A stretch of 18,612 bases of DNA from the IMG/VR virus record IMGVR_UViG_2645727905_000004, positions 1 to 18,612 of that record; one strand, written 5' to 3'. This document shows, piece after piece, positions 1-18,612 of the stretch. Each line of letters opens with the position of its first letter. Within the stretch, counting starts at the first letter, position 1. Source of the stretch: a virus. Taxonomy: Duplodnaviria > Heunggongvirae > Uroviricota > Caudoviricetes. Below the pieces are notes generated by a model. The model was not told the origin of the DNA, ran no database searches, and saw only the letters and a list, made by a program, of their open reading frames with translations. A program made the position numbers and the translations under genes.

Positions 1-98
1 CAGTAGCGGAGCAGGAAGGACATCTGATGGAAATGGAAGCCACGCAAGCACCTTAAAATCACCATCATACACTAAATCAGTAAGTTGGCAGCATTACC
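1..98 (-). mobile_element. IS1-family insertion sequence, terminal segment with left inverted repeat; element continues leftward off-window
   Basis: Reverse complement of 1-98 reads GGTAATGCTGCCAACTTACTGATTTAGTGTATGATGG..., recognisable as an IS1-type left end (a variant of the canonical sequence as recalled); terminus at 98. Confidence 0.65.
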
Positions 99-743
99 CA
101 CACAGGTATCATGCTCAATAACAAAGTGCTACCTGTAACCATTTACAACATAGTACCATTCAATAAAACATTCTGGAATTTAATCAAAAACAGCCAGGAA
201 TGCCCTACAAATACAGATAACGTATTGAATGAATGCTTTAATAACCGTTGCACTCTGCAAATATGTCCTTATGGGCTAAAACAACAAAATCCATAAGGAG
301 TTTACTCACATCTGACAAAATCAATATAAACAGCCCCTCCGGAGAGGGGCTGGAGAGTGGCGCTATGTGCCATTGCATGGTGCCGGGTGCCTCCCGGTGA
401 ATTCAGTACCAGCACCTGAATCCGCGATTATCCCATATACCTACTCGCTGATTGCCCCTCCGCACAGGGGGATTCACCATGCCAGTTTCTTTTAACAAAC
501 TCCCCGCAAACCAGACAACAGTCAACCGCCTGAATTGTGAAGTATTTAAAAATTTCTCCCGCTAACTGATACCCGGCTAACAGTCTGGCGTTTTCTTTTT
601 CAGCAACGGGAAAGCAACAACCACCACACCCGCCACCAGCACACCGTCAGCCAGCACTGACATTATCCGGCTGCTGCAATGCCATTCACAAAAACAGTAA
701 GCAATCACTTTTTACCGTAACAGGTGATAATCCAGATATGTAT

Positions 744-1097
744 CTACCCCAGATGAGTAATCCGAAGTTCATCCATACCACAGGTCCTGGCTATTCTGTT
801 GTACTCCTGAACAAGAGCAAATAATTCTGAATTAGCAACCATGAACTCATCGCAAACCCTCTGTATAGCATCACTATTCAGAATAATAACGTCTCTTCCC
901 GAAAGACGATCAGGAGTACAGAACAAAACTGTCAAACGGCTGAAGGCCTTTGCTCGTGCTGCATTGACTATATCAATACGCTGCCTAAGGATGAAACACC
1001 CCGACGCCTCATCAATATTCACTCTACCCACACCATATGAATGATAAATATTTAATGCTGAAAAAACCATTAGACCGTATAACAAATATTCAATCAA
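744..1097 (-). CDS. hypothetical protein, first ORF downstream of the phage tRNAs; start uncertain (TTG at 1097 or ATG at 1070), possibly a frameshifted fragment
   Basis: 117-codon ORF in the late-operon orientation; no strong SD at either candidate start; the adjacent frame continues into a short hydrophobic tail (577-663). Confidence 0.3.
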   Translation of the reverse strand: MIEYLLYGLMVFSALNIYHSYGVGRVNIDEASGCFILRQRIDIVNAARAKAFSRLTVLFCTPDRLSGRDVIILNSDAIQRVCDEFMVANSELFALVQEYNRIARTCGMDELRITHLG

Positions 1098-1207
1098 TAC
1101 TTAACAGAACTTTTATTTTTGACAAACATATAATATTTTCAACAATATCCTGAGCCAGGTATATTTCAGTATAAGGCTCTGCCGGAAGGAATCTGGAAGA
1201 ATGAATA

Positions 1208-1284
1208 TGGCGCGCTGTACTGGATTCGAACCAGTGACCGATTGCTTAGAAGGCAATTGCTCTGTCCGGCTGAGCTAACAACGC
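1208..1284 (-). tRNA. tRNA-Arg (anticodon UCU), phage-encoded
   Basis: Reverse complement GCGTTGTTAGCTCAGCCGGACAGAGCAATTGCCTTCTAAGCAATCGGTCACTGGTTCGAATCCAGTACAGCGCGCCA folds as a cloverleaf with anticodon loop CTTCTAA, T-arm GGTTCGAATCC and CCA end. Confidence 0.85.
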
Positions 1285-1385
1285 TGAATACCGATAATGG
1301 ACCGCCATCGGGGACCCGCCCCCCGCACCAACAACCCTGTTATCGTGTCGTCTGCTCTTCCTGATAAGCTAATGGCGGTTTGTGA

Positions 1386-1461
1386 TGGTGGCCCTTGCTG
1401 GATTTGAACCAGCGACCTGGCGATTATGAGTCGCTCGCTCTCACCACTGAGCTAAAGGGCC
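1386..1461 (-). tRNA. tRNA with CAU anticodon, ileX/ileZ-like (tRNA-Ile2 with lysidine; Met not excluded by anticodon alone)
   Basis: Reverse complement GGCCCTTTAGCTCAGTGGTGAGAGCGAGCGACTCATAATCGCCAGGTCGCTGGTTCAAATCCAGCAAGGGCCACCA; 76 nt cloverleaf, anticodon loop CTCATAA, closely resembles E. coli ileX as recalled; one A-C mismatch at the top of the anticodon stem. Confidence 0.8.
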
Positions 1462-1500
1462 GGGAGCAGAATAATAACGGTCCGTAATTAATTTCGCAAT

Positions 1501-1528
1501 AAAAAACCCGCTCAGCGGCGGGTTGTAG
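1501..1528 (-). terminator. rho-independent terminator downstream of the Q-dependent late promoter (tR-prime-like)
   Basis: Minus strand reads ACAACCCGCCGCTGAGCGGGTTTTTT: GC-rich hairpin followed by a T6 run. Confidence 0.6.
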
Positions 1529-1571
1529 AAACTCTTCTAACGTCAGGCATAAAACGCCCATCGTTATGACG

Positions 1572-1599
1572 AATTTACCACAGATTCCGGAAAAATCAA
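1572..1599 (-). promoter_or_regulatory. candidate late promoter (PR-prime-like) with probable Q-utilisation site immediately downstream of the Q gene
   Basis: Minus strand TTGATT-16 nt-TAAATT directly after the Q stop codon, followed about 40-60 nt later by the hairpin terminator at 1501-1528; arrangement parallels lambda PR-prime/qut/tR-prime. Confidence 0.45.
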
Positions 1600-1604
1600 C
1601 CTTG

Positions 1605-2426
1605 TTACCTAGTTACCTTTTTTAACTGCCGCTCAGCCCATGCTTCTTCAATATCAAACCGGGTCACCAGCGCATCATAAAATTTCTTAACTGTTTTTTC
1701 CCATGACGCGCGTGTTATCTGGTTTGTCACCTCGCATATAGCATTAAATGCCTCCGTTGATGGTAGTCTTTCATAGCCACGACCACCACAACGCTGGCAG
1801 TCTCTGATAACAGGCATACCACGTTTTACCGACTCTTCACGATGAATGGCGACACCACGCCCACGGCAATCCTTACAGGCGGTGGAAACCTCACCCTTTC
1901 CGCCACACTCCGGACAGGCAACTTTTACCACCTCCCTGACTTTTTTCCATTCTTCCCAGTAAGACGGATACACACCTTTCGTACACTTTGCCCATACCGG
2001 CGGCTTACCATCCGGATACTGGACCTTGTTTGTAAAAACTATGCTTTCAATAAATTTTTCCCCATAGCAACAAGGGCACTGCTTTTTACTCGCTGCGCTG
2101 CGGGCATAATCCTCAAAAGCGTACGAAGCCATAATGCGCATCACTACCGGTTTTATTTCTGCCGGAAGTTTTCTCAACGCCGCCACACGATCGCACCGAC
2201 TGAGTGCATAATCTGCCAGTAATTCTGTTGCCCGCGCCCTGTCATTCATACTGATGCCCATTTTCCCCAGGAACGCAGAAAAACCCATCTCAGCCCGATT
2301 CTGTGTCATGCCCTGCGCGGCCATCACATCAGTGATACTCAGCGCATCTTTTGACGTTGAGGCCGATGCATCGGTCAGGCCAGGGGATTTTGGGGAGTAG
2401 TATTTCGGTAAATCTTCCAGTTTCAT
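1605..2426 (-). CDS. late-gene antitermination protein Q (lambdoid Q family, zinc-finger type)
   Basis: 273 aa; several CxxC pairs (CPCC, CPECGGKG, CKDCRGRG, CQRCGGRG); sits between rusA and the late promoter/tRNAs as in Qin and Stx-type prophages. Confidence 0.75.
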   Translation of the reverse strand: MKLEDLPKYYSPKSPGLTDASASTSKDALSITDVMAAQGMTQNRAEMGFSAFLGKMGISMNDRARATELLADYALSRCDRVAALRKLPAEIKPVVMRIMASYAFEDYARSAASKKQCPCCYGEKFIESIVFTNKVQYPDGKPPVWAKCTKGVYPSYWEEWKKVREVVKVACPECGGKGEVSTACKDCRGRGVAIHREESVKRGMPVIRDCQRCGGRGYERLPSTEAFNAICEVTNQITRASWEKTVKKFYDALVTRFDIEEAWAERQLKKVTR

Positions 2427-2440
2427 TTTTTGACCTGCTC

Positions 2441-2797
2441 TTAATGCATTATGGGGTAAATCTTCACCCCCAGACGTCCACCAGATACTGGCTGACCACG
2501 AACGATATTGATTTCATCAAACTGCTCATCGTCCATTAACACTCCCGCATGCGTCAGCGCATCCAGCGGTGCTTTCAGAATGTTGTCCAGGTCGCGACGA
2601 CGCTTATCCGGTGGCTCTGCAATCACCTTTATCGCCAGCCTTCCGGACAGGCTTAATTTCAGCCGCTGCTGGCGAACAATAAACGCCACAGCCCGGCGAT
2701 AACGCTTTCCCTCCTCCGAGATAAAATATGTGCTGCCACGGCGTCGCCAGTAAGTGTTCACCGTCGGCGGGTAAGGTAAAACCAAATCTATGAGCAT
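2441..2797 (-). CDS. rusA: crossover junction endodeoxyribonuclease RusA (Holliday junction resolvase)
   Basis: 118 aa; motifs YRRRG...PPDKRRRDLDNILKAPLDALTHAGV...GGRL match the RusA family; located in the nin region upstream of Q. Confidence 0.85.
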   Translation of the reverse strand: MLIDLVLPYPPTVNTYWRRRGSTYFISEEGKRYRRAVAFIVRQQRLKLSLSGRLAIKVIAEPPDKRRRDLDNILKAPLDALTHAGVLMDDEQFDEINIVRGQPVSGGRLGVKIYPIMH

Positions 2798-2809
2798 CAG
2801 TCACCTCTT

Positions 2810-3859
2810 TTACCCAAGCACGCCAGTTGCAAAGGCGTGATCAAGAAAACGAAAAATTAAATCAACCTGAGAACCATGCTTTTCTTCGAACGCCAGCGGA
2901 TCCGCATGAAGCTCGTTGTGATGCTCCCGACACAGCGGTAGCGTGAAAATATCGTGAGATTTTGTCCCCATTCCGCCCTGACCATGACCAATCAGGTGAT
3001 GGGGATCGTCGGCTGGCTTACCACAACACGCACACGGCTGTGTCTTCACCCAGCGTGTGTATTTCTCGTTAACCCAGCGGCGACGTTTAGGTCGTTTCAT
3101 GAAAGATTCCGGAGGCTCAGGATCAACGGCAATGCTGACCACCGTCTTTTCCTGTGGTGGGTTCTGTTGCTGGTGGGCGTGAGGCAGCGGCGCAAGATTT
3201 TTTGTGCGCTGTTTCAGTATGCTGATGGCGGTCTGCTCTCCCGGTACGATGTCGCTTTCGCGGTACAAGGGGCGGATTTTTTCCGCACGTAACCCCAGAG
3301 AACGACGTAATACTGCCTCCGGAAGCGCGTCCGCCACCTGATTGCAGACCGCCCACCAGGATAATTCAGCCAGAGATAATTCACGCTCCTGCGTACCGCT
3401 TATTGCGTGACCGATGACGTCAATCATCCATGCTGACAGGTTTTGATGAGCAAGTTGCTCGAGTGATTCGGATGTCTGGTCACGCAGCTGGTTGTCGCAG
3501 TGCCAGCACAACACCATTGCGCCGGTACCATAACGGTGAATGACGGTTTCGCTGTGATGATAATCGCCGTGTGGCCACTGGCAGGATTTAATATGGCGCA
3601 ACAGCCAGTCAGACAATGCACCAGCACCACCAGCAGCACGAATCACCCGTGCGTTACTGAAAAACGGCAGCAATGTTTTGTCTTCCACTAGCGGCTGGTG
3701 AACGGCAGGAACAACCCCGGACGGCAGATTACGCATGCTTTTCGGTTCCGGCTCCACCAGTACCCGGGTATTGTGGAATACCGGCATGGATTCACGGCCC
3801 GGCTTAACGATCACCAGCCCGAGTTCCGGTACCAGAACAGGTCGAAGTAATACCCGCAC
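2810..3859 (-). CDS. ydfU: YdfU-like prophage protein (DUF968) with C-terminal HNH-like zinc-finger motif
   Basis: 349 aa; C-terminus CACCGKPADDPHHLIGHGQGGMGTKSHDIFTLPLCREHHNELHADP; GTG start with GGAGG SD; synteny with the Qin quuQ-ydfU-rem-hokD block. Confidence 0.7.
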   Translation of the reverse strand: MRVLLRPVLVPELGLVIVKPGRESMPVFHNTRVLVEPEPKSMRNLPSGVVPAVHQPLVEDKTLLPFFSNARVIRAAGGAGALSDWLLRHIKSCQWPHGDYHHSETVIHRYGTGAMVLCWHCDNQLRDQTSESLEQLAHQNLSAWMIDVIGHAISGTQERELSLAELSWWAVCNQVADALPEAVLRRSLGLRAEKIRPLYRESDIVPGEQTAISILKQRTKNLAPLPHAHQQQNPPQEKTVVSIAVDPEPPESFMKRPKRRRWVNEKYTRWVKTQPCACCGKPADDPHHLIGHGQGGMGTKSHDIFTLPLCREHHNELHADPLAFEEKHGSQVDLIFRFLDHAFATGVLG

Positions 3860-3860
3860 G

Positions 3861-4139
3861 TTACCTCCAGATGCGTTGCTGGAATGTGCGGGACGGACGC
3901 GGTGGGCGCTCGGAGTAAGGAAGCCTGACGGAGATTATCCAGTGACGATAATCGAGGCTGAGGGCTTTCTTAATCTCGTATCCGTGTCTGCGGTAGCACT
4001 GAATTAGCCACTCGGCCTGTTCTTCAGTGCATGGGGGATGCTGGAACCAGTCAGATTTGAAAGTGCGGGAACGCCGCCCGTGCCTGCTGGCAAAGACGGC
4101 AGAATCATCAGAATTGTGTAATTTGGTATCGTGCGCCAT
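3861..4139 (-). CDS. small nin-region protein (position equivalent to Qin rem); function unknown
   Basis: 92 codons from the ATG at 4139; the longer ORF-track start at 4268 would run through the hok terminator hairpin, so the internal ATG is preferred; stop overlaps the ydfU-like start region. Confidence 0.45.
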   Translation of the reverse strand: MAHDTKLHNSDDSAVFASRHGRRSRTFKSDWFQHPPCTEEQAEWLIQCYRRHGYEIKKALSLDYRHWIISVRLPYSERPPRPSRTFQQRIWR

Positions 4140-4209
4140 CGGTTGTCTCTGCTGGCGCAGCAGGTGCCAGTTGTTCAGGCTGGCGTGCGAATTGTAAACC
4201 AGAACGACC

Positions 4210-4238
4210 AGAAAAAACAAAACCCGCCGAAGCGGGTT
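4210..4238 (-). terminator. rho-independent terminator at the 3' end of the hok transcript
   Basis: Minus strand AACCCGCTTCGGCGGGTT hairpin followed by TTGTTTTTT, about 70 nt downstream of the hok stop. Confidence 0.65.
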
Positions 4239-4306
4239 AAGTGCGGGTGCGTTGAGGATGCCTGACACATCAGCGGTGGCGAGGGATTTCTCCCCCGCCG
4301 GGTCTC

Positions 4307-4462
4307 TTACTCCTCAGGTTCGTAAGCTGTGAAGACAGCGACCTCCGTCTGGCCGGTTCGGATTCGTACCTCGCAGAGGTCTTTCCTCGTTACCAGTGCC
4401 GTCACTATGACGGTTAAACAGATGACGATCAGGGCGATTAACATCGCCTTTTGCTGCTTCAT
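4307..4462 (-). CDS. hokD: Hok-family type I toxin (HokD/RelF-type small membrane peptide)
   Basis: 51 aa MKQQKAMLIALIVICLTVIVTALVTRKDLCEVRIRTGQTEVAVFTAYEPEE, matching HokD as recalled; SD AAGGAG upstream; an in-frame upstream ATG at 4519 gives the 70-aa ORF in the track. Confidence 0.85.
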   Translation of the reverse strand: MKQQKAMLIALIVICLTVIVTALVTRKDLCEVRIRTGQTEVAVFTAYEPEE

Positions 4463-4753
4463 AGCCTGCTTCTCCTTGCCTTTCGGCACGTAAGAGGCTA
4501 ACCTACATTTGTGAGACATAGATTGGGCCTCAGATTAATGTTAAGCGTCGTGCAGGACGCGTAATGTTAACTGGGGCTTTTCTCTATCTGCCTTTTGGTG
4601 TTCATGCCTGAGACAGATAGCCTCAAGCACCCGCAGTCATTCTACTTAACTAAGATTTCCCCGCAAACCGTTTTTATCCCCAGCTGCAAATCGAATACAC
4701 AACAAGTGCTGCCGCCATTGCAATTCCTGTCGTTGTGAATGCCTCCGGCCAGG

Positions 4754-5176
4754 TCATCGTAAAACATCCTCCGCGCTTATCAGCCCATTCCGCTCCAGAT
4801 ACCCCATCGCCATATCCGGTAATTTGCAATCTGGTTTCGCTTTTTTCAACTGACTTACCAATTGTTTAACCAGCATTGCCAACTCTTCCTCATGTGAAAG
4901 TGATGCCGGTTGCGCAGCGTACAGGGGTTTTGGCGCAATGGCTGAGTGTTTTGCGTATGCCGCAACAGATTCAGCATTGAACAAAACCATATTGTGAGCA
5001 CAGGACCATGCAACTGGCATTGCTTCAAGTGAGGCAAGCGCAATACGGGCAAGCGCAAGATCCATTTCAATGGCAACTCTTGAAGTCTTAAACACGGTCT
5101 GTCGCGCAGCAAATTTCATGGATTTCACACTTTCATTAGCATGAGCAATCAATTGCTCTCTGGTAAATTTCGTCAT
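4754..5176 (-). CDS. hypothetical protein (141 aa from ATG at 5176), no recognised family
   Basis: ORF in early-right orientation; the internal ATG is preferred over the track start at 5227 because the latter has no SD; moderately biased composition. Confidence 0.45.
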   Translation of the reverse strand: MTKFTREQLIAHANESVKSMKFAARQTVFKTSRVAIEMDLALARIALASLEAMPVAWSCAHNMVLFNAESVAAYAKHSAIAPKPLYAAQPASLSHEEELAMLVKQLVSQLKKAKPDCKLPDMAMGYLERNGLISAEDVLR

Positions 5177-5209
5177 ATTTTTCTCATCCAGTCCTGTCGC
5201 TATGCCTGC

Positions 5210-5252
5210 GCAACCATTACCCCACAATTACATCACAGGGGGTAATGGTTGC
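5210..5252. repeat. perfect 14-bp inverted repeat (GCAACCATTACCCC / GGGGTAATGGTTGC) with 15-nt AT-rich loop in an intergenic gap
   Basis: Read directly: arms at 5210-5223 and 5239-5252; no flanking T-run on either strand, so not a classical intrinsic terminator. Confidence 0.8.
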
Positions 5253-5347
5253 AATTCAGTGGCCACCGCGAGATTCACATCATTCACAATAAATCATAAA
5301 AATACACGCAATCACAGACCATAATAAAAGAACTGTTTCGGCCACAA

Positions 5348-5698
5348 TCACAAGACCTTCCCACATTTCTTTTTCCCACACCTCCTGAAACCAGAGAATC
5401 GGCATATCGCCCCCCTCTGAAAAACAACCACATGCCCTAGCTTCTCCGCCAGAGCCAGTTCCGCTTTAGCGCCTGCTGACCGTTGCCAGTCTTTCAGCAT
5501 ATAAATCGCATCCACGCTACGTATCATTGCCATGCAGATATCCATGTAGTGCGGCTGTGTCAGCCCGTCCGGAAGTACTGCCGGGTTCAAGACTGTATGC
5601 CCTTCCCGTTTCAGTTCCTCTTCCGCCTTGTGGAACGCCTCACGGTTGAAATTTTTATACCCGGTCATTGGACCGGCAATATAAACTCTCACCCTCAC
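5348..5698 (-). CDS. DUF4406-like protein (nucleoside 2-deoxyribosyltransferase-like fold), prophage accessory
   Basis: 116 aa; N-terminal VYIAGPMTG motif typical of this family; GTG start overlapping the upstream stop (GTGA) with GGAG SD. Confidence 0.55.
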   Translation of the reverse strand: MRVRVYIAGPMTGYKNFNREAFHKAEEELKREGHTVLNPAVLPDGLTQPHYMDICMAMIRSVDAIYMLKDWQRSAGAKAELALAEKLGHVVVFQRGAICRFSGFRRCGKKKCGKVL

Positions 5699-5976
5699 TC
5701 CTGAACTCTCCTGTCGAAATAAACGTAGTTATTCACTGTGCGCAACGGCATTCCAAATTTTCTGGCGATTTCTCTCCTGGGTACGCCACGCTGATGCAGC
5801 TGTCGCGCCAGTTCAATATCACTCTGTGGATATTTTGTTGACTGGTGATAATCACCCCGTAACATCAGACTGACACCCAGTTCCCGCGCTTTCGTTCTGA
5901 CAGCATCACCTGTACGACCGGTCAGCCTCCCAATGCTTTCGACCGTCATCGTTCCCGCACACTGACGGAGTATCAT
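5695..5976 (-). CDS. small helix-turn-helix DNA-binding protein, unknown role
   Basis: 93 aa from the ATG at 5976 (GAGG SD 8 nt upstream); two HTH-like segments (ESIGRLTGRTGDAVRTKAREL and RREIARKFGMPLRTVNNYV); stop overlaps the next start. Confidence 0.5.
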   Translation of the reverse strand: MILRQCAGTMTVESIGRLTGRTGDAVRTKARELGVSLMLRGDYHQSTKYPQSDIELARQLHQRGVPRREIARKFGMPLRTVNNYVYFDRRVQE

Positions 5977-6008
5977 GATTTCAGCCTCGTACCACTTCTT
6001 CCAGCCAC

Positions 6009-6770
6009 TCACCGCTGCAGCTCTCCGGTCGCGGTAATATCCCGAAGAATATCCCGGTGCTTGTTCAGCTCCCGCAGCGCGGCGCAGACTCGTTCCCACT
6101 TCTGGACATGACTTTTCGCCCGACGCAGTTCGAGGTTTGCCATATGCAGCGATGGTAAAATCAGGTCATCCGCTCGCGTTTCAGTAAACGATGGCAGCGA
6201 CTGCACAATGCCCGCTACAGTTTCTGTTTTAATTTCTTCCTGTGTTGCGGCTTCCCGGACTGGTAACGCAACACCTGCTGGCTGAGGAAAGGTCTTACCA
6301 TCATTTTCCGTTACCGATGCTGCTTTCGGCTCTGCTGGTAAATTACCGCCCGGCATGCAGTAACGAAATTTACCGCTCTGATTAACGCGTGCCAGCCGCC
6401 CCGTTGCGGTTACCACCGCCAGCGTGGAAGCAACCTTGCGAGTACTGATGCCGAACTTACCCGCCAGTTCCTCACACGTTTTAGCCCCATCCTGACCGAT
6501 AAACTCAATCATCATGTCTGCGGTAACTTTTTGTTCGACCTCCCCGGTCAGCATATCCTGTGCTTCAGATTTTACTGGCCGCTCTTCGGTTACCAGGGAT
6601 TCACTTTCGCCAGCCAGAAACCAGGTGTGACCAGTTTTATCAACGACGCCATTTCTTTTGAGTTCCCACAGCTCGTTGAGAACCTCTTCACGACTGATAT
6701 CAAGTCGCGCGGCCAGTTCTACCGATGTGGCTTTTCCCATTGCTTTCAGTGCGTCAAAAACGGTTTCCAT
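6009..6770 (-). CDS. prophage protein with two winged-helix-like repeats (DUF1627-like)
   Basis: 253 aa; internal repeat [29 protein letters not shown] and [29 protein letters not shown]; GGAGG SD 9 nt upstream of the ATG. Confidence 0.55.
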
Positions 6771-6791
6771 TAAAATTTCCTCCGGACAAAA

Positions 6792-7538
6792 TTACTTCAC
6801 AACCCTCAGGTGTCTGACATTCGAACGCCAGCTCTCCCAGTTAAAATTCACCCAGCGACCACCGTTCATGACCATGCGGTCCATCACACGCTCGCCAAGA
6901 AGCGTACTCATCGCTACGTGGTTCAGGTTCGTCAGCATTCCGACACTACGCATCGAAGCCGTTCTGCGGTCGACTATCTGGTTCAGTGTGACCTGCTCGT
7001 TGCGCGTATCCCGCTGCATTCCGATTTCATCCAGGACAAGCAGGTCAACATCACACAACCCCTGTAAAAATTTTTCGCCTGAGTTTTTGTTGTCGTAGCT
7101 GTTGTGTAACGCCAGCATCACATCAGCCACCGTTATCACAATCACGCTGCGACCTTTCGCCAGAAGATGATTGCCAATGGCGGCTGCAAGGTGGTTCTTT
7201 CCGGTACCCGGCTTACCGCTGAACACAAAATTCGTGCACCCGGTCATCAGTTCGTCAGCGATGGATTTTGCCTGGCTCAGCGCGTGTTTTTGCCCGTCGT
7301 TCTGCACCTGATAATTCGCAAACGAGCATTTGCTGTGCAGAGGCTGGATGCCCGAACGATTCAGGATTTTTTCCACCCGCAACTGGCGATTCTGGCGGTT
7401 GATCTCCTCGCTACGTTTTCGCCCTTCTGCCAGTTGCCACTCGCGCCACTCGTCCACTGTCCGGTACGGCGCGATTACATGCTGCGGGGTCAGCTTACGG
7501 ATACGCTCAAGAACACCACCTGTCGCGATATTTTTCAT
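6792..7538 (-). CDS. DnaC-like replicative helicase loader (phage P-analogue, AAA+ ATPase)
   Basis: 248 aa; Walker A GKPGTGKNHLAAAIG and Walker B LLVLDEIG; immediately downstream of the O-like initiator. Confidence 0.85.
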   Translation of the reverse strand: MKNIATGGVLERIRKLTPQHVIAPYRTVDEWREWQLAEGRKRSEEINRQNRQLRVEKILNRSGIQPLHSKCSFANYQVQNDGQKHALSQAKSIADELMTGCTNFVFSGKPGTGKNHLAAAIGNHLLAKGRSVIVITVADVMLALHNSYDNKNSGEKFLQGLCDVDLLVLDEIGMQRDTRNEQVTLNQIVDRRTASMRSVGMLTNLNHVAMSTLLGERVMDRMVMNGGRWVNFNWESWRSNVRHLRVVK

Positions 7539-7544
7539 GGCCCG

Positions 7545-10322: not shown

Positions 10323-10541
10323 ATGCAGAAACGAGAACCCGTCATCATCGCGCCAGACTATACCGATGATGAACTTTATGAGTGGATGCACCAGAAAATT
10401 AAGGCTGCGCAGGACCTGAAATGGGCCAATGAAGCCAGGGCTAAGCAGGCTGAAAATCTGTCCGCTCTGGAGCAGGATATCACCAATCTGGAAAAAGCAG
10501 CGGCATTAAGCATTGCCAGAATGATTACATACCCACGTTAA
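10323..10541 (+). CDS. ydfC: YdfC-like protein (dicB operon)
   Basis: 72 aa; GAGGAA SD 5 nt upstream; position and length match Qin ydfC. Confidence 0.7.
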   Translation: MQKREPVIIAPDYTDDELYEWMHQKIKAAQDLKWANEARAKQAENLSALEQDITNLEKAAALSIARMITYPR

Positions 10542-10563
10542 TAGCTAACCAACGAGGCTAATA

Positions 10564-10971: not shown

Positions 10972-11182
10972 TGAAATAGTTAACGCGAATTGTACTTGCT
11001 CTTTCAGTTGCTTTCAGAATACGCGTTGAAACTGCTGGCGGTAATTTGGTATTCCATTTATTAAAATCATGCCCGGGAAAGTACTCTTCGAAAATACTTT
11101 TAACTGCAGACTCGCCTATTGAAATGCTGCTTACCATGCGATTTTGATAAAGGCATTTAGCAATAAGAGTTGATTTTAACAT
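10949..11182 (-). CDS. hypothetical small protein convergent with, and overlapping, the 135-aa ORF
   Basis: 77 aa; AGGAGG SD 4 nt upstream of the ATG at 11182; 3' end overlaps the 3' end of the plus-strand ORF by 23 bp. Confidence 0.45.
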   Translation of the reverse strand: MLKSTLIAKCLYQNRMVSSISIGESAVKSIFEEYFPGHDFNKWNTKLPPAVSTRILKATERASTIRVNYFIKDLWDL

Positions 11183-11505
11183 TCACCCTCCTGAGGGTTG
11201 GTAATTAAGGAGTTCTCCATGGGTGAAGTGGAGTGCGTGCGCCGGACACGGGTGAACATCCGGCACTGACAGTTTACTGAAAGGATATTTCTCTGAAAAG
11301 TCAGAGCATAACGCGAAAGCGCACGGCGAGGTTGCTGGTTCATAGATAGCCTGTCGTTAAATTTTCGTCGACCGTGCGCTTCCGGTTGTGGCACTCCGCG
11401 AAATGGCGCGGCGGTAAGTATGGCGGGGTTATTCCTTCCCCGTTGAGGACACCGGGTTGTCAGGTTGACCATACGCCTGAGTGACAACTCCGCTACAACA
11501 ACCCA

Positions 11506-11565
11506 TGTTGATTACCTTTTGGCGGGTATTCGTTTTGTTTTTCCCGTGATACCCGCCCCTTTTAA
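11506..11565 (+). ncRNA. dicF: DicF-like small RNA (variant) ending in an intrinsic terminator
   Basis: Sequence TTGATTACCTTTTGGCGGGTATTCGTTTTGTTTTTCCCGTGATACCCGCCCCTTTT resembles DicF as recalled (GGCGG..GTTTT..CCGTGA..CCGCCC + U-run); sits between ydfC and dicB as in Qin; boundaries approximate. Confidence 0.5.
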
Positions 11566-11740
11566 AGTGAATTTTGTGATGCGGTGAATGCGGCTCAGCG
11601 CACGCGGAACAGTTAAAACAAGCGGTCTTTTACTTGCGTAACAGACATCAACTAACAATCCGGCGTTAATGGTTTACTGGTTAACGTCACCTGGAGGCAC
11701 CAGGCGCCGCATCACAAAATTCATTGTTGAGGACGCGATA

Positions 11741-11929
11741 ATGGAAACGTTATTACCAAACGTTAATACGTCTGAAGGTTGTTTTGAAATTGGTGTCACT
11801 ATCAGTAACCCAGTATTTACTGAAGATGCCATTAACAAGAGAAAACAAGAACGGGAGCTATTAAATAAAATATGCATTGTTTCAATGCTGGCCCGTTTAC
11901 GCCTGATGCAAAAAGGATGCTGGCAATGA
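11741..11929 (+). CDS. dicB: cell division inhibitor DicB
   Basis: 62 aa METLLPNVNTSEGCFEIGVTISNPVFTEDAINKRKQERELLNKICIVSMLARLRLMQKGCWQ, near-identical to K-12 DicB as recalled; the longer track ORF starts upstream in frame. Confidence 0.85.
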   Translation: METLLPNVNTSEGCFEIGVTISNPVFTEDAINKRKQERELLNKICIVSMLARLRLMQKGCWQ

Positions 11930-12129
11930 ATACTACATTTGCACTTGTTCTGACGGTTTTTCTTGTTTCCGGTGAACCGGTTGACATGGTTACTGGCGTA
12001 TACGGCTCAATGAAAGAATGCATGGTTGCCGCAGCGGAACAGAAAATTCCCGGTAACTGTTATCCGGTCGATAAAGTTATTCACATGGATAATAACGAAA
12101 TCCCGGCAGGACTTAAAACAGCACCGTAA
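11926..12129 (+). CDS. ydfD: YdfD-like small membrane/lysis protein
   Basis: 67 aa MNTTFALVLTVFLVSGEPVD...; start overlaps the dicB stop (ATGA); hydrophobic N-terminus. Confidence 0.65.
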   Translation: MNTTFALVLTVFLVSGEPVDMVTGVYGSMKECMVAAAEQKIPGNCYPVDKVIHMDNNEIPAGLKTAP

Positions 12130-12209
12130 TTAATATCCGGTTTCATTTTTATATGCCAGCAATGGCAGGGATTTGTTCACCCTTAAATCTGTAATGAGGT
12201 TAAAACAAA

Positions 12210-14681
12210 ATGAGTAAAGTCTTTATTTGCGCCGCCATTCCGGACGAACAGGCAATAAAGGAAGAAGGTGCAGTCGCTGTAGCCACTGCCATTGAAGCTG
12301 GCGACGAACGCCGTGCTCGAGCAAAATTTCACTGGCAGTTCCTGGAACATTATCCGGCTGCTCAGGACTGCGCTTATAAATTTATTGTCTGCGAGGATAA
12401 ACCTGGCATACCCCGCCCTGCCCTCGATTCATGGGATGCTGAATATATGCAGGAAAACCGCTGGGATGAGGCGTCTGCTTCCTTTGTCCCGGTTGAGACT
12501 GAATCAGATCCGATGAACGTCACTTTTGACAAGCTGGCCCCTGAAGTACAGAACGCTGTCATGGTTAAGTTCGACACATGTGAAAACATCACCGTTGATA
12601 TGGTTATTAGCGCACAGGAATTGTTGCAGGAAGACATGGCAACATTCGACGGACATATCGTTGAAGCGTTGATGAAAATGCCAGAAGTTAACGCCATGTA
12701 TCCGGAGCTTAAGCTGCATGCCATCGGGTGGGTTAAGCATAAATGTAAGCCTGGTGCCAAATGGCCCGAAATTCAGGCAGAAATGCGCATCTGGAAAAAA
12801 CGTCGCGAAGGTGAACGCAAGGAAACCGGAAAATACACGTCTGTTGTTGATCTCGCCCGCGCCAGAGTCAATCAACAGCACACTGAAAATTCAACAGGAA
12901 AAATCAGCCTGGTCATTGCTGCCATTCATCGCGAATACAAGCAGACATGGAAAACACTGGATGACGAACTGGCCTACGCTCTCTGGCCTGGTGATGTGGA
13001 TGCCGGAAACATTGACGGCAGCATCCATCGCTGGGCAAAAAATGAAGTTATCGACAACTACCGCGAAGACTGGAAGCGTATCTCGGCATCAATGCGCAAA
13101 CAGCCTGATGCCCTTCGCTACGACCGCCAGACTATTTTTGGCCTTGTCCGTGAACGTCCGATCGACATTCACAAAGCCCCTGTGGCACTGAACAAATACA
13201 TTACTGAATACCTGACTACAAAGGGCGTGTTTGAAGATGAAGGAACAAATCAGAGCGCAACTGATACTCTCTCGTCGCCAGTACCAGAAACTGATGCAGT
13301 GGAAACGGCAATTCCGGACAACGAAAAAACCGAATGCAAAGTGGAAGTCGAACCATCTGTAGAGCGTGAGGGGCCGTTCTACTTCCTCTTCACCGACAAG
13401 GATGGCGAAAAATACGGTCGCGCAAACAAACTTTCTGGTCTGGATAAGGCACTGGCTGCCGGGGCTACTGAAATCACGAAAGAAGAATATTTCGCCCGCA
13501 AAAACGGTACATACTCAGGTTCACAACAAAATACTGGTGCATCTGACACGACCGCACAACCAGAGCCGGTAAAAGTTACCGCTGACGAAGTAAACAAAAT
13601 TATGCAGGCAGCCAATATCAGCCAGCCTGACGCCGATAAGTTGCTTGCTGCCTCTCGCGGAGAATTTGTTGCAGGGATTAGCGACCCGAATGATCCGAAA
13701 TGGGTTAAGGGGATCCAGACCCGCGATTCTGTAAACCAGAACCAGCATGAATCGGAACGGAACTACCAAAAAGCGGAACAAAACAGCCCAAATGCGTTAC
13801 AAAACGAGCCAGAAACGAAACAGCCTGAACCAGTGGCGCAACAGGAAGTGGAAAAAGTCTGCACCGCCTGCGGTCAGACCGGCGGCGGCAACTGCCCTGA
13901 TTGTGGCGCGGTGATGGGCGACGCAACATACCAGGAAACATTCGATGAAGAGTATCAGGTTGAAGTTCAGGAAGATGATCCGGAGAAAATGGAAGGCGCT
14001 GAACATCCACACAAGGAGAACACTGGCGGCAATCAGCATCATGCCAGCGATAATGAAACTGGCGAGACGGCAGATCACTCAATTAAGGTGAACGGTCATC
14101 AAGAAATCACATCCACCAGCAGGACGTGTGACCATCTAATGATCGACCTTGAAACCATGGGAAAAAATCCTGATGCCCCGATCATCTCAATAGGTGCAAT
14201 ATTTTTCGATCCGCAAACCGGAGATATGGGACCGGAATTTAGTAAGACTATCGATCTGGAAACTGCTGGCGGAGTCATTGATCGGGACACCATTAAATGG
14301 TGGCTTAAGCAATCACGCGAAGCGCAATCTGCCATTATGACCGATGAAATCCAGTTAGATGATGCACTGTTACAATTGCGGGAATTTATCGACGAAAACT
14401 CCGGTGAATTTTTTGTTCAGGTCTGGGGAAATGGAGCCAACTTCGACAACACGATTTTGCGCCGTTCATACGAACGGCAGGGGATCCCCTGCCCGTGGCG
14501 TTACTACAACGATCGCGATGTACGCACAATCGGTGAGCTGGGGAAAGCCATAGACTTCGATGCCAGAACGGCTATTCCATTCGAAGGTGAGCGCCATAAT
14601 GCACTTGATGACGCCCGTTACCAGGCAAAATACGTTTCAGTTATCTGGCAAAAACTGATCCCGAGTCAGGCTGATTTTTAA
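12210..14681 (+). CDS. large prophage exonuclease (exodeoxyribonuclease VIII / RecE-annotated type) with C-terminal DEDDh 3'-5' exonuclease domain and internal zinc ribbon
   Basis: 823 aa; C-terminal motifs MIDLETMG, WGNGANFDN, HNALDDARY typical of DnaQ-like DEDDh exonucleases; CTACGQTGGGNCPDCG zinc ribbon; acidic low-complexity linkers; position matches Qin ydfE. Confidence 0.7.
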   Translation: MSKVFICAAIPDEQAIKEEGAVAVATAIEAGDERRARAKFHWQFLEHYPAAQDCAYKFIVCEDKPGIPRPALDSWDAEYMQENRWDEASASFVPVETESDPMNVTFDKLAPEVQNAVMVKFDTCENITVDMVISAQELLQEDMATFDGHIVEALMKMPEVNAMYPELKLHAIGWVKHKCKPGAKWPEIQAEMRIWKKRREGERKETGKYTSVVDLARARVNQQHTENSTGKISLVIAAIHREYKQTWKTLDDELAYALWPGDVDAGNIDGSIHRWAKNEVIDNYREDWKRISASMRKQPDALRYDRQTIFGLVRERPIDIHKAPVALNKYITEYLTTKGVFEDEGTNQSATDTLSSPVPETDAVETAIPDNEKTECKVEVEPSVEREGPFYFLFTDKDGEKYGRANKLSGLDKALAAGATEITKEEYFARKNGTYSGSQQNTGASDTTAQPEPVKVTADEVNKIMQAANISQPDADKLLAASRGEFVAGISDPNDPKWVKGIQTRDSVNQNQHESERNYQKAEQNSPNALQNEPETKQPEPVAQQEVEKVCTACGQTGGGNCPDCGAVMGDATYQETFDEEYQVEVQEDDPEKMEGAEHPHKENTGGNQHHASDNETGETADHSIKVNGHQEITSTSRTCDHLMIDLETMGKNPDAPIISIGAIFFDPQTGDMGPEFSKTIDLETAGGVIDRDTIKWWLKQSREAQSAIMTDEIQLDDALLQLREFIDENSGEFFVQVWGNGANFDNTILRRSYERQGIPCPWRYYNDRDVRTIGELGKAIDFDARTAIPFEGERHNALDDARYQAKYVSVIWQKLIPSQADF

Positions 14682-14739
14682 TGTTCAACCCTAATTGCCG
14701 CTAACCGTATATAGTTAGCGGCGGTTATGAGATATAGCT

Positions 14740-14943
14740 ATGAGCAACTTATTTTTAACCGAAGATGAATTGCTAATATTAACGGGCTGCAAATATGCAA
14801 GCCACCAGCGAAAATGGTTAACGGAAAACGGGCTTCCGTTCTATACCAATCGTAGTGGCAAACCGATTGTCAGCCGGGATCTATTTACCTGCAATAAAAC
14901 TTTACCACCACGCGAGGTAGAGCCGAATTTTGGTGCAATCTAA
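14740..14943 (+). CDS. excisionase-like small DNA-binding protein
   Basis: 67 aa directly upstream of int with overlapping stop/start (TAATG). Confidence 0.55.
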   Translation: MSNLFLTEDELLILTGCKYASHQRKWLTENGLPFYTNRSGKPIVSRDLFTCNKTLPPREVEPNFGAI

Positions 14944-15968
14944 TGGGAAGACGAAGGAAAAATCCTGAACACGAAAAACTACCTCCAAATGTATACCCAA
15001 ATAAATATAGTTATGTATGGAAACCAACATCCAGAGAATCTGTCACACTAACCGCCATCAAGGATGGTTTAGCTGCTTTATGGAAAAAGTATGAGGAAAC
15101 TGTAAATAATCGCGATCGTGCAATGACATTCGGTCGCTTGTGGGAAAAATTCCTCGCCAGCGCCTATTACAGTGACCTCAGTCCAAGAACACAAAAAGAT
15201 TATCTGCAACATCAAAAAAAGTTGCTTGCCGTATTCGGTAAGGTGCCGGCAGATTCCATAAAACCAGAACACATCCGTCGATACATGGACAAGAGAGGGG
15301 AACAGAGTAAAACGCAAGCCAACCATGAAAAAAGCAGTATGTCCCGCGTTTACAGTTGGGGGTATGAGCGAGGGTACGTGAAGGCTAACCCATGTGCAGG
15401 TGTAAGTAAATTCAAGGCCAAAAACCGCGAACGATATGTAACCGACAAAGAATACCAGGCAGTATTAAGCGTTGCACCTCTTCCTGTTTTTATCGCAATG
15501 GAAATTGCCTATCTGTGTGCAGCGAGGGTTTCCGATGTGTTATCGCTGAAATGGGAGCAGATTGGAAACGACGGAATCTTTATCCAGCAAGGGAAAACAG
15601 GAAAAAAACAGATAAAAGCATGGAGTCCACGATTACAGGCGGCGATCGAAAAAGCAAAACAGTTACCAACATCCGCCTATGTAATCAGTAATCAATACGG
15701 CAACCGATATATGTACAAAGGCTTTAACGAAATGTGGGTAGAAGCAAGAAATCGCGCAGGCAAAATTTCAGGTATTTTAACCGACTTCACCTTTCATGAT
15801 CTGAAGGCGAAAGGAATTTCAGACTATGAAGGAAGCAGTCGGGATAAGCAACTTTTCTCTGGTCACAAAACCGAGGGGCAAGTGCTAATCTATGACAGGA
15901 AGGTTAAAGTTTCACCGACACTTGATGTCCCGTTACCTGAAAATATTCCAAGAAAATATTCCAAGTAA
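14943..15968 (+). CDS. phage integrase, tyrosine recombinase
   Basis: 341 aa; catalytic-region motifs AARVSDV, FHDLKAKG, HKTEGQVLIYDR; adjacent to a tRNA gene. Confidence 0.9.
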   Translation: MGRRRKNPEHEKLPPNVYPNKYSYVWKPTSRESVTLTAIKDGLAALWKKYEETVNNRDRAMTFGRLWEKFLASAYYSDLSPRTQKDYLQHQKKLLAVFGKVPADSIKPEHIRRYMDKRGEQSKTQANHEKSSMSRVYSWGYERGYVKANPCAGVSKFKAKNRERYVTDKEYQAVLSVAPLPVFIAMEIAYLCAARVSDVLSLKWEQIGNDGIFIQQGKTGKKQIKAWSPRLQAAIEKAKQLPTSAYVISNQYGNRYMYKGFNEMWVEARNRAGKISGILTDFTFHDLKAKGISDYEGSSRDKQLFSGHKTEGQVLIYDRKVKVSPTLDVPLPENIPRKYSK

Positions 15969-16020
15969 TTCCAAGTGTGATTTTTGTCACTGACTTAATG
16001 ATGTATAAGTGATTGAATTT

Positions 16021-16110
16021 TGGCGGAGAGAGGGGGATTTGAACCCCCGGTGGAGTTGCCCCCACTCCGGTTTTCGAGACCGGTCCGTTCAGCCGCTCCG
16101 GCATCTCTCC
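16021..16110 (-). tRNA. serU: tRNA-Ser (anticodon CGA), serU; prophage attachment site
   Basis: Reverse complement GGAGAGATGCCGGAGCGGCTGAACGGACCGGTCTCGAAAACCGGAGTGGGGGCAACTCCACCGGGGGTTCAAATCCCCCTCTCTCCGCCA, 90 nt with long variable arm. Confidence 0.9.
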
Positions 16111-16203
16111 GTTCAGATGGTTGCCATGATGCCAGGAAATTTGGCATTTTAACAGTCCCTGTCCGTGCAATTTTGTTCAAGTGACGAGTTTGCGAGCAAA
16201 ACG

Positions 16204-17001
16204 ATGATTAAGTGGCCCTGGAAAGTACAAGAATCAGCACATCAAACTGCCCTTCCCTGGCAGGAAGCACTATCGATCCCCCTTTTAACGTGTCTGACAG
16301 AACAGGAACAAAGCAAATTAGTCGCTCTTGCCGAACGTTTTTTACAACAAAAACGGCTTGTTCCTTTACAGGGCTTTGAGCTGAATTCATTAAGAAGCTG
16401 CCGGATAGCACTTCTATTTTGCCTGCCCGTTCTGGAGTTAGGACTGGAATGGCTGGATGGTTTTCATGAAGTCTTAATTTATCCTGCGCCATTTGTGGTC
16501 GATGATGAATGGGAAGACGATGTCGGTCTGGTGCATAACCAACGTATTGTTCAGTCAGGTCAGAGCTGGCAGCAAGGGCCTATCGTTTTGAACTGGTTGG
16601 ATATACAAGATTCTTTTGATGCTTCTGGTTTTAACCTGATTATTCATGAAGTCGCTCATAAGCTGGACACCCGTAACGGCGATCGCGCCAGCGGAGTTCC
16701 CTTTATTTCGTTGCGTGAGGTTGCTGGCTGGGAACACGATCTTCATGCTGCAATGAACAACATTCAGGAAGAAATCGAATTAGTTGGTGAGAATGCGGCG
16801 AGCATTGATGCTTATGCTGCCAGTGATCCTGCTGAATGTTTTGCCGTACTTTCTGAATATTTCTTTAGCGCCCCAGAACTTTTTGCTCCTCGTTTCCCTT
16901 CATTGTGGCAACGTTTCTGTCAATTTTATCAACAAGATCCTTTGCAGAGACTGCATCACGCTAATGATACAGACTCGTTTTCGGCGACGAATGTTCATTA
17001 A
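16204..17001 (+). CDS. mtfA: Mlc titration factor A (MtfA), host gene
   Basis: 265 aa from [23 protein letters not shown]..., matching E. coli MtfA as recalled; HEVAHKLD zinc-peptidase-like motif; the track ORF starts 13 codons upstream. Confidence 0.9.
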
Positions 17002-17101
17002 TTAACAACTTTGCAGATTAATTAACCAATTGAAATGGCTTATGAAATTTAGTGTTGACAGACAAGGTACCGCTAAGTAATATGCGCCCCGTTCTCACGA
17101 T

Positions 17102-17177
17102 TCCTCTGTAGTTCAGTCGGTAGAACGGCGGACTGTTAATCCGTATGTCACTGGTTCGAGTCCAGTCAGAGGAGCCA
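17102..17177 (+). tRNA. asnT: tRNA-Asn (anticodon GUU), host
   Basis: TCCTCTGTAGTTCAGTCGGTAGAACGGCGGACTGTTAATCCGTATGTCACTGGTTCGAGTCCAGTCAGAGGAGCCA; which asn paralogue it is follows from K-12 synteny with mtfA and serU. Confidence 0.9.
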
Positions 17178-17265
17178 AATTCTAAAGATTCGCTTTTTTA
17201 GCGCAATGTCACTGCTCTTAGTTGAGCATTGCTTTTTAACGGATAGCGGGTTTTTGACATCTTAA

Positions 17266-17298
17266 GCGCCCTCAATCTTCATGGTTGAGGGCGTTTTG
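17266..17298 (+). terminator. rho-independent terminator downstream of tRNA-Asn
   Basis: GCGCCCTCAA-tcttcatgg-TTGAGGGCG hairpin followed by TTTTG. Confidence 0.65.
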
Positions 17299-17439
17299 CT
17301 ATGAACGCCATCACCATTTTCCCCTTGATTATAAAACTTGAGTAATTCAGTAGTCTCCCCTCTTGCAACTCACACCCAAAACTGCTTAACGAAAAGTTAT
17401 TAATTTTCAATCATATTGCTATCAGGATCTACTTTTTTT

Positions 17440-18513
17440 CGCTGTGCTAGAAAGGGCGCATTTATGTTAGCTCGTTCAGGGAAGGTAACCGTGAAGGTTA
17501 CTGGCAACTCAAGCACCGCCCATGTTGCTAGCTTTATCGCTGATCCATCGACTATCGCCGCCACCAACAGTGATTTAAGTACCTTAAAGGCAACGGTTGA
17601 GGATGGCAGTGGTAACCTGATCGAAGGTCTCACTGTGTACTTCGCCTTAAAAAGCGGCTCCACCACATTAACGTCATTAACAGCAGTGACCGATCAAAAC
17701 GGAATCGCGACAACAAGCGTGAAAGGAGCGATAACGGGGAGCGTCACTGTAAGCACAGTCACAAGCAAACAGTAGATATATCGCTAGTGGCAGGCCCAGC
17801 AGACGCCTCGCAGTCCATCCTTAAGAACAACCAGTCATCACTGAAAGGGGACTTTACCGATAGTGCTGAGCTACATCTTGTTCTGCACGATATATCAGGC
17901 AATCCGATCAAAGTTTCTTAAGGGATGGAATTTGTGCAATCAGGTACAAACGTGCCCTATATGAAAATTAGCGCAATTGATTACAGTCAAAATATCAACG
18001 GTGATTACAAAGCTACTGTTACAGGAGGCGGAGAGGGTATCGCAACGCTGATCCCCGTATTGAATGGTGTTCATCAGACGGGCCTGAGTACCACGATAGA
18101 ATTCATTAGCGCGGAAACCAGACCAATGACCGGTACAGTGTCAGTGAATGGTGCAAACCTACCGACAGCTTCATTCCCTTCGCAGGGATTTACCGGGGCG
18201 TATTATCAGTTGAATAATGACAGCTTTGCACCAGGAAAAACGGCGGCTGATTATTTGTTTCAAGCTCGGCCTCCTGGGTAGGCGTTGATGCTACTGGTAA
18301 AGTGACATTCAAAAATGACGGTGATAGCAATACTGTAATAATCACAGCGCCCCCAAGATCCGGTGGTGCTATTTACCAAACAGTTCCGCATGAATCGCGT
18401 TCGGTGTGACTATGATCATTTTCGGTGAGTATTGCTTTGCTCCAAAGGCTGGTTTTCTGTGATGATTGACCAGCCTCAGAGTATTGATGACACTACCGTT
18501 CATAACAGATCGG
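17440..18513 (+). pseudogene. yeeJ: remnant of a YeeJ-type inverse-autotransporter adhesin gene: C-terminal Big-domain region only, frameshifted, truncated by IS1
   Basis: Big-domain-like translations spread over three frames (17416-17775, 17776-17924, 17925-18281, then a further frame to about 18410); they resemble the YeeJ C-terminal region as recalled; sequence stops at the IS1 end at 18514. Confidence 0.6.
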
Positions 18514-18612
18514 GGTAATGACTCCAACTTATTGATAGTGTTTTATGTTCAGATAATGCCCGATGACCTTGTCATGCAGCTCCACCGATTTTGAGAACGA
18601 CAGTGACTTCCG
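18514..18612 (-). mobile_element. IS1 insertion sequence, right-end inverted repeat and adjacent ~100 bp (element continues rightward off-window)
   Basis: GGTAATGACTCCAACTTATTGATAGTGTTTTATGTTCAGATAATGCCCGATGAC... is the reverse complement of the IS1 right end, nearly identical to canonical IS1 as recalled. Confidence 0.85.

Follow-up and report, generated by a model that had tools for sequence, protein, structure and literature searches.

Composite elements flanked by IS1 are known, with Tn9, Tn1681 and the argF segment as examples, and IS1 also promotes adjacent deletions. Transposition of IS1-flanked units reportedly drops steeply with length, a result attributed to Chandler, Clerget and Galas in 1982. 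In composites of the Tn9 type, direct IS1 repeats surround a passenger segment; Tn9 itself is small, occurs in several contexts and is bordered by outer target duplications. A second arrangement of this kind is found in E. coli K-12 MG1655, where IS1B (279163-279930) and IS1C (290634-291401), both on the minus strand, form a direct pair around argF in the cryptic prophage CP4-6. The K-12 argF segment has reportedly been described as a transposon (Tn2901).

IS1 ends are also encountered as a product of assembly. Contigs of an IS1-bearing draft genome often end in IS stubs (PMC5343135). In the contig-edge stubs treated with ISseeker (PMC5343135) and ISMapper (PMC4558774), a multi-copy IS is collapsed, the assembly breaks at the position of the IS and a short stub is left.

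The stretch of DNA analysed here (hereafter the window, 18,612 nt) carries an IS1 end at each edge and can be compared with all of these systems. It is the entire contig JHTC01000070.1 (18,612 bp) of the short-read E. coli draft assembly GCA_001266305.1, and its stubs of 98 and 99 nt, at both edges of one whole contig, do not differ materially from the contig-edge stubs above. Like the K-12 pair, the two ends are in direct orientation around prophage-associated chromosomal DNA of at least about 10 kb, but the K-12 copies can be seen in full and lie 10.7 kb apart, as opposed to 18.4 kb here. Unlike Tn9, the passenger would be about 18 kb of native DNA not seen elsewhere, with the outer ends lying beyond the contig.

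We favor, with a probability of about 0.82, the reading that the window is a complete short-read contig lying between two separate, strain-private IS1 insertions that share their orientation and are 18.4 kb apart by chance. More specifically, the contig would break off 98 and 99 nt, or roughly one k-mer length, into IS1, a repeat that is presumably multi-copy in this genome and impassable for the assembler. Stops at this depth are as expected for an assembler collapsing a multi-copy IS, and IS1 lies at both window edges because IS1 set the window boundaries, the contig having broken at collapsed IS1 repeats. The bracketing by IS1 is real but ordinary, and it is largely a product of repeats breaking assemblies. 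IS1 was found in 4,958 of 5,426 complete E. coli genomes (median 10 places per genome, up to 68), and at about 10 copies, pairs no more than 18 kb apart are expected about 0.4 times per genome; such a pair would be mildly unusual if the source strain were IS1-poor. The direct or inverted orientation of edge stubs is a 50:50 outcome. For scans of this kind the lesson is one of method: where the window is an entire draft contig, edge repeat stubs are caused by the assembly break, and a pair of them should not be read as framing the sequence in between in any meaningful way.

Identity and orientation of the IS1 ends

The left stub (1-98, minus strand) corresponds to IS1 nt 1-98, i.e., the left inverted repeat and the first 14 insA codons. 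Its reverse complement aligns without gaps and is of the IS1F type, with 98/98 identities to K-12 IS1F and 85/98 to K-12 IS1A. The terminal repeat GGTAATGCTGCCAACTTACTGAT and the N-terminus of InsA, (V)ASISIRCPSCSAT, are both present in it. At 99% identity or above it is matched by more than 4,000 E. coli records, and the 100% matches are annotated as IS1 or IS1F family transposase. The right stub (18514-18612, minus strand) corresponds to IS1 nt 670-768, i.e., the last 27 insB codons and the right inverted repeat. Read as the reverse complement, it matches IS1A at 97/99 positions and the IS1 copies L020, L021 and L022 at 99/99, encodes the InsB C-terminus ...HYLNIKHYQ* (RKSLSFSKSVELHDKVIGHYLNIKHYQ*) and ends in ...GGAGTCATTACC; its 100% matches are annotated as IS1 family transposase. 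For both stubs the match to IS1 is far beyond chance.

The terminal inverted repeats of IS1 (about 23 bp, GGTRATG...) are present in both, as the left end starts with GGTAATGCTGCCAACTTACTGAT and the right one ends in the complement of GGTAATGACTCCAACTTATTGAT, and the left and right IS1 ends are alike at 18 of their first 23 positions. The gene order is likewise that of IS1, insA lying at the left end and insB at the right. Since the left stub is an insA end and the right stub an insB end, both reverse-complemented, the orientation is direct. The initial annotation had placed an IS1 left end at 1-98 and an IS1 right end at 18514-18612, both as reverse complements and in the same orientation around about 18.4 kb, and alignment to IS1 bears this out. 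From these stubs, in which only 98 and 99 nt of each element are present, we infer two IS1 copies. Of the two stubs, the left is the shorter by one base.

It had further been proposed that the left copy is more divergent from canonical IS1 than the right. The counts agree with this (13/98 against 2/99 mismatches to IS1A) but do not distinguish the copies, as a single IS1F-like isoform, L022, gives the same pattern, differing from IS1A at 14 positions within the first 96 nt and at 2 within the last 96. A divergent left end and a canonical right end belonging to two IS1 types was accordingly rejected as a reading. K-12 IS1F at the fec locus, identical to the left stub, agrees with the right stub at only 96/99 positions, whereas the IS1F-like copies L022 and L020 of other strains agree with it at 99/99. 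Because the right-stub variant is found on an IS1A-like body as well (L021), 99 nt do not suffice to assign the right copy to an isoform.

The two insertion sites

The IS1 junctions lie at 98/99 and 18513/18514, and both were confirmed against uninterrupted sites in relatives. In a comparison with strains lacking either IS1, which the initial annotation had suggested as a check, near-identical relatives read through both sites without interruption.

On the left, IS1 would have inserted into iraM of the lambdoid prophage at serU, after nt 138 of the gene. The iraM 3' fragment (anti-adapter, PmrD family; 99-296, plus strand) corresponds to nt 139-336, the first 138 nt being cut off by IS1, and window positions 96-300 are 99.5% identical to the intact iraM in L018 (4866-5201). 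The sister strain sequence CYDW01000019.1 is 99.958% identical over window positions 99-16771 and runs through the left site into an intact iraM, followed by a nanS-type esterase. In sister strain L030, where the iraM homologue is a PF11183 PmrD gene, the uninterrupted site reads ...ACACTGACT/CACACAGGTATC..., with the slash at the point of insertion. The only concrete consequence for the biology that can be seen here is the disruption of the prophage-borne iraM homologue in this strain. Searching with the truncated iraM ORF (61 aa) returned other strains only, with intact upstream sequence or unrelated contig breaks.

On the right, the insertion would lie in the yeeJ-yeeL intergenic region. 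Three relatives (L035, L043 and L036; 99.0-99.6% identical) run through the site into yeeL (6604-7656), the uninterrupted sequence being ...CATAACAGATCGG/CATTACTATGC...; the K-12 equivalent of the site is position 11253, and the complete genome L034 shows the IS1-free architecture. The adjoining yeeJ remnant (17487-18321, plus strand; BLAST against K-12, with Big_1/Invasin_D3 domains) is without 5.8 kb relative to K-12, the gap opening 60 bp before the start codon and closing at about nt 5786 (in L033, position 3936 jumps to 9782). The same deletion allele is carried by many genomes and has no link to IS1. Local G+C is 33% at the left site and 40% at the right site, compared with 48% for the window, and both insertions would be in A+T-rich accessory DNA. 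IS1 insertions in A+T-rich prophage or island DNA are routine in E. coli, as are direct-orientation IS1 pairs, K-12 included, and the biological weight of the arrangement is small.

Each stub is probably part of a complete IS1 of 768 bp, flanked by an 8-9-bp target duplication of its own. The predicted 9-bp target site of the left IS1 is CACACAGGT (99-107), with a second copy expected on the far side of the element, beyond the contig; that of the right IS1 is ACAGATCGG (18505-18513), which is intergenic between yeeJ and yeeL and 23 nt beyond the yeeL 3' end. The size of 9 bp is taken from the 8-9-bp duplications of neighboring IS1 insertions in other strains, and the inner flanks, CACACAGGT and ACAGATCGG, have no common 9-mer. 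Beyond the stubs, the native sequence would continue with the 5' part of iraM and the nanS-type esterase on the left and with yeeL-shiA-amn on the right. Simple insertion on both sides predicts that ...ACACTGACTCACACAGGT abuts the right end of IS1 and that the IS1 left end runs on into ACAGATCGGCATTACTATGC.... The outer junction would then read ...TTTACACTGACTCACACAGGT followed by GGTAATGACTCCAAC (IS1 right end) on the left, and ...GTTGGCAGCAT[T/C]ACC (IS1 left end) followed by ACAGATCGGCATTACTATGCATAAG on the right.

Neither exact IS1 junction was found in complete RefSeq E. coli genomes, GTDB representatives or JGI metagenomes, and among complete E. coli genomes the only two-piece junction matches came from IS1 copies at nearby but different sites. 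Given that the exact junctions are absent from these collections, both insertions look recent and private. In other strains, IS1 has inserted independently at distances of 26 to about 380 bp from these sites, and an 8-9-bp duplication accompanies each insertion; all four of the neighboring insertions examined are simple, and from these duplications simple insertion is the norm here. An orientation preference of IS1 (L014-L017 all have the same orientation as the window) was considered and rejected as an ascertainment artefact: the BLAST tool joins only same-strand pieces, so only same-orientation copies scored near-full.

Content of the interval and alternative origins of the IS1 pair

Most of the interval is the early/regulatory half of a lambdoid prophage (1605-15968; Pfam hits), 99.96% identical to the prophage in CYDW01000019.1. 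It begins with the Q antiterminator (1605-2426, minus strand), 3' of which ARAGORN identified a tRNA pair (1208-1461, minus strand) composed of a tRNA-Arg(TCT) at 1208-1284 and a CAT-anticodon tRNA at 1386-1461; homologues of the pair are annotated as tRNA-Arg and as tRNA-Ile or tRNA-Met. The Q protein is too widespread to trace neighboring contigs. From Q onward the order is RusA, DUF968, hok, a DnaC-like gene, a repressor-region gene with no Pfam family (9322-9741), dicB, an 823-aa 3'-5' exonuclease (12210-14681, plus strand) and the integrase (14943-15968, plus strand). The integrase adjoins the prophage attachment locus serU, a tRNA-Ser(CGA) gene (16021-16110, minus strand; ARAGORN) collinear with K-12 serU, which is followed by mtfA (16204-17001, plus strand; PF06167 Peptidase_M90, E=3.6e-60) and the tRNA-Asn(GTT) gene asnT (17102-17177, plus strand; ARAGORN). 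The serU-mtfA-asnT region is 97.4% identical to K-12. No island is present at asnT here; the sister strain has the yersiniabactin island there. The content given in the initial annotation is all present (prophage early region, serU, mtfA, asnT and yeeJ remnant), but the description of the prophage as a remnant is not established, because the sister prophage, 99.96% identical, extends beyond the left site and the prophage here may simply carry on in another contig. L011 is identical to window positions 2210-18612, and none of the 5,426 RefSeq E. coli complete genomes covers at least 80% of the window.

This content bears on whether the IS1 pair and the intervening 18.4 kb are a functional composite transposon, Tn9-like but large, that has moved or is mobile as a unit. 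The direct orientation, the intact terminal repeats of the stubs and the compatibility of both stubs with one IS1F-like isoform would suit such an element. The integrase abuts serU, however, serU-mtfA-asnT-yeeJ' is the chromosomal order of K-12 and many strains, and both inner flanks continue seamlessly in relatives without the IS1 copies. A composite would be recognized by two complete IS copies, by a target duplication outside the pair but not around each single copy, and by its occurrence in several contexts or a foreign passenger. The interior is instead collinear with the chromosome and with a prophage in its native place at serU. No plasmid was found to cover 80% or more of the segment, and neither junction was found elsewhere in the genomes and metagenomes searched. 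We consider a composite very improbable, and the composite-transposon-like mobilization proposed earlier finds no support, the inner flanks being in native context and the segment, as a unit, being found on no plasmid. Less probable still is that both stubs come from one IS1, which would close the contig into a circle of about 19.2 kb (an excised circle, translocatable unit or episome). A left edge at IS1 nt 98-1 and a right edge at IS1 nt 768-670 on the same strand are what one closing IS1 would give, and both stubs fit a single IS1F-like isoform, but a collapsed multi-copy IS gives an identical graph topology for any contig between direct IS1 copies. The circle would moreover consist of core chromosome (serU, mtfA and asnT) and half a prophage, no plasmid replication gene was present among the genes scanned, and the sister strain has this DNA within a linear chromosomal contig of 70 kb that reaches past both sites.

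It is unlikely, though less so, that one or both IS1 copies border a rearrangement (e.g., an adjacent deletion of the late prophage half, an inversion or a translocation) and have no target duplication. The outer flanks lie beyond the contig, the window being the whole of it, IS1 in general promotes adjacent deletions, and the prophage remnant of the initial annotation would fit such an event; yeeJ already carries its 5.8-kb deletion in this lineage, though that allele is widespread and unlinked to IS1. Against a rearrangement, 4/4 neighboring IS1 insertions examined in other strains are simple and carry 8-9-bp duplications, the sister prophage is intact across the site, and within the window there is no indication of one. 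Two separate simple insertions remain our preferred reading.

Deletion of the segment by IS1-IS1 recombination, also raised in the initial annotation, could in principle occur here as between any two direct repeats, but this is generic and not a feature of the locus. We regard it as highly doubtful that the segment is an active translocatable unit (a circle or transposition with half a lambdoid prophage, serU, mtfA and asnT) or a hotspot of IS1-IS1 deletion. If the hotspot were real, the prophage immunity and integration module would be lost along with two tRNA genes.

IS1 ends at the edges of a draft contig

Both edges of the window are reverse-complemented pieces of IS1: positions 1-98 correspond, in a gap-free alignment, to IS1 nt 1-98, and positions 18514-18612 to IS1 nt 670-768. 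The left stub contains one terminal repeat and the InsA N-terminus; in the right stub are the C-terminus of InsB with the stop codon and the second terminal repeat. Since the insA end lies in one stub and the insB end in the other, both reverse-complemented, the two elements have the same orientation; the initial annotation, which had described IS1 ends in direct orientation at these positions, was right to the base. The stubs differ in size by one base (98 nt left, 99 nt right), which could come from trimming by the assembler or from a flanking base shared by chance.

The window, located through its 823-aa prophage exonuclease, is the complete contig JHTC01000070.1 (18,612 bp) of draft assembly GCA_001266305.1, the part compared being identical to window 2210-18612, and this contig ends 98 nt and 99 nt into IS1. 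Short-read assemblers are known to break contigs inside multi-copy insertion sequences (PMC5343135). IS1 was found in 4,958 of 5,426 complete E. coli genomes, at a median of 10 and a maximum of 68 places per genome. For the source strain, a simple Poisson estimate with a 5-Mb genome and assumed copy numbers gives 0.4, 1.4 and 5.5 expected neighbouring IS1 pairs at most 18.4 kb apart for 10, 20 and 40 copies, respectively. It was IS1 that set the limits of the contig, and hence of the window, which explains the bracketing; for two flanking copies, direct and inverted orientation each have a 1-in-2 chance. The feature consists of the contig-edge stubs of two independent, ordinary IS1 insertions, one disrupting the prophage iraM and one adjoining yeeL, and stubs of this sort are of a kind already known. 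Of the first reading of this segment, the observation of the stubs stands and the interpretation is upheld in part.

The left copy had also been described as the more divergent. Against IS1A of E. coli K-12 (reference from NC_000913.3), the left stub is identical at 85/98 positions and the right stub at 97/99, that is, 13 versus 2 mismatches; the left stub matches K-12 IS1F at 98/98, and the right stub matches IS1 copies of other strains at 99/99. At 99% identity or more, the left stub occurs in over 4,000 E. coli records, and among the matches listed those at 100% are annotated as 'IS1 family' or 'IS1-like element IS1F family' transposase. Mismatches between IS1F-type elements and IS1A are spread unevenly: K-12 IS1F has 13 in the first 96 nt and 5 in the last 96 nt, and L022, the copy of strain 13P484A, has 14 and 2. 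Because L022 (97/98 left, 99/99 right) and L020, a copy from another strain (98/98, 99/99), each fit both stubs, a single IS1F-type isoform suffices. The right-stub variant is also present on an IS1A-like body (L021), so 99 nt are insufficient to type the right copy. Whichever type that copy is, the difference in mismatches is uninformative as to two kinds of IS1 copy.

The two insertion sites in relatives without these IS1 copies

Comparison with strains lacking either IS1, as proposed in the initial annotation, finds uninterrupted DNA at both sites. On the left, an intact prophage gene of strain 2013C-4991, annotated 'anti-adapter protein IraM' (an anti-adapter protecting RpoS from RssB), matches window 96-300 at 99.5% identity. 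By coordinates, iraM is cut by IS1 after nt 138, leaving its 3' part at window 99-296; as the first 46 codons are taken away, this accessory copy is inactivated in the source strain. The nearest relative, CYDW01000019.1 (GCA_001283865.2; 99.958% identical over window 99-16771), is uninterrupted here (...ACACTGACT|CACACAGGTATC...) and continues with the remaining iraM, then a SASA-family (nanS-type) esterase.

On the right, window 16005-17488 corresponds to the K-12 stretch that starts at serU and stops 60 bp short of the yeeJ start codon; window 17487-18321 then corresponds to the 3' part of yeeJ. Compared with K-12, this remnant (junction 17487/17488) has a 5.8-kb deletion that starts 60 bp before the start codon and ends near nt 5786 of the gene. 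Intergenic yeeJ-yeeL sequence makes up window 18386-18513, and many genomes with the same yeeJ allele are uninterrupted at the right site (...CATAACAGATCGG|CATTACTATGC...); 23 nt past it comes the 3' end of yeeL, which codes for a family 9 glycosyltransferase, then shiA and amn. The public collection contains this allele, recognised by an identical 115-aa ORF, in 831 indexed blocks, which makes it widespread, without a link to IS1. The longest contig with this ORF is just 5-10 kb in 510 of the 831 blocks, which hints that, in draft assemblies of some large clone, the locus lies on a short repeat-bounded contig. The entire IS1-free layout is visible in one complete genome (L034), with a whole lambdoid prophage including lysis and head genes to the left of iraM, and full yeeJ, yeeL, shiA and amn to the right.

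Neither exact junction was found in complete RefSeq E. coli genomes, nor the 30-31-nt junction strings in GTDB representative genomes or JGI metagenome contigs. Given this absence from all searched sets, both insertions look recent and private to the source strain. Near-full junction matches were two-piece matches to IS1 copies at other nearby positions in other strains: inside iraM, 26 bp from the window's site (L016); just upstream of iraM (L017); 58 bp away toward yeeL (L015, 4273-5040); and 294 bp away inside yeeL (L014, 4509-5276). All four independent insertions have their own 8-9-bp target duplication, so simple insertion is usual in these neighbourhoods. The search tool merges BLAST pieces on the same strand only, which limits near-full matches to same-orientation copies, so the orientation that these four share with the window carries no meaning. 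In 129 complete genomes, yeeL or the sequence just 3' of it has independent IS1 insertions, located at no fewer than two positions, which suggests that the region is a recurrent IS1 target, the same orientation there being an artefact of match finding. G+C content is 48% for the window, and locally 33% around the left site and 40% around the right one; IS1 prefers A+T-rich target DNA, with which both values are compatible. Another independent insertion in this prophage type lies in the early-left region (ydfC area) of a related prophage (L026 5643-6340, CM128605.1).

Mobilisation, circularisation and deletion

The initial annotation had raised composite-transposon-like mobilisation, in which the IS1 pair and the segment move as a unit. 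A composite that had moved would carry DNA foreign to its surroundings; here the integrase abuts serU, serU-mtfA-asnT-yeeJ' are ordered as in the chromosomes of K-12 and many other strains, and both inner flanks run on seamlessly in relatives without the IS1 copies. Among plasmid records none carried 80% or more of the segment; the top 'plasmid' matches were prophage pieces or very large records also bearing chromosomal genes, and this proposal is not sustained. A single IS1 closing a 19.2-kb circle would formally leave the stubs arranged as they are, but the content is core chromosomal DNA with half a prophage, no plasmid replication gene was found among the genes scanned, and in the sister strain this DNA is part of a linear contig of 70 kb.

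Two independent insertions remain our reading. Less probably, one copy might border a rearrangement, such as loss of late prophage genes, instead of being a simple insertion; the far sides lie outside the contig. Deletion of the interval by recombination between the two copies, also raised initially, could occur in principle, as with any direct repeats, and is in that sense generic; K-12 offers a precedent in IS1B and IS1C, a directly oriented pair that encloses 10.7 kb of cryptic prophage CP4-6 including argF.

tRNA loci within the segment

The prophage of the sister strain CYDW01000019.1 is 99.9% identical, and divergence from the window begins exactly at the asnT 3' end (window 17178). At its asnT (L010, a stretch of that record, 15130-22472) lie an integrase gene, then a chorismate-binding-enzyme gene, an MFS transporter gene and ABC-transporter genes, which we take to be the gene order of the yersiniabactin high-pathogenicity island; in the window strain, asnT is without the island. 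Two prophage tRNA genes lie on the minus strand between Q and the lysis region, tRNA-Arg(TCT) at 1208-1284 and one with a CAT anticodon at 1386-1461, called Met by ARAGORN; homologues of the latter are annotated as tRNA-Ile in three genome records and as tRNA-Met in one.
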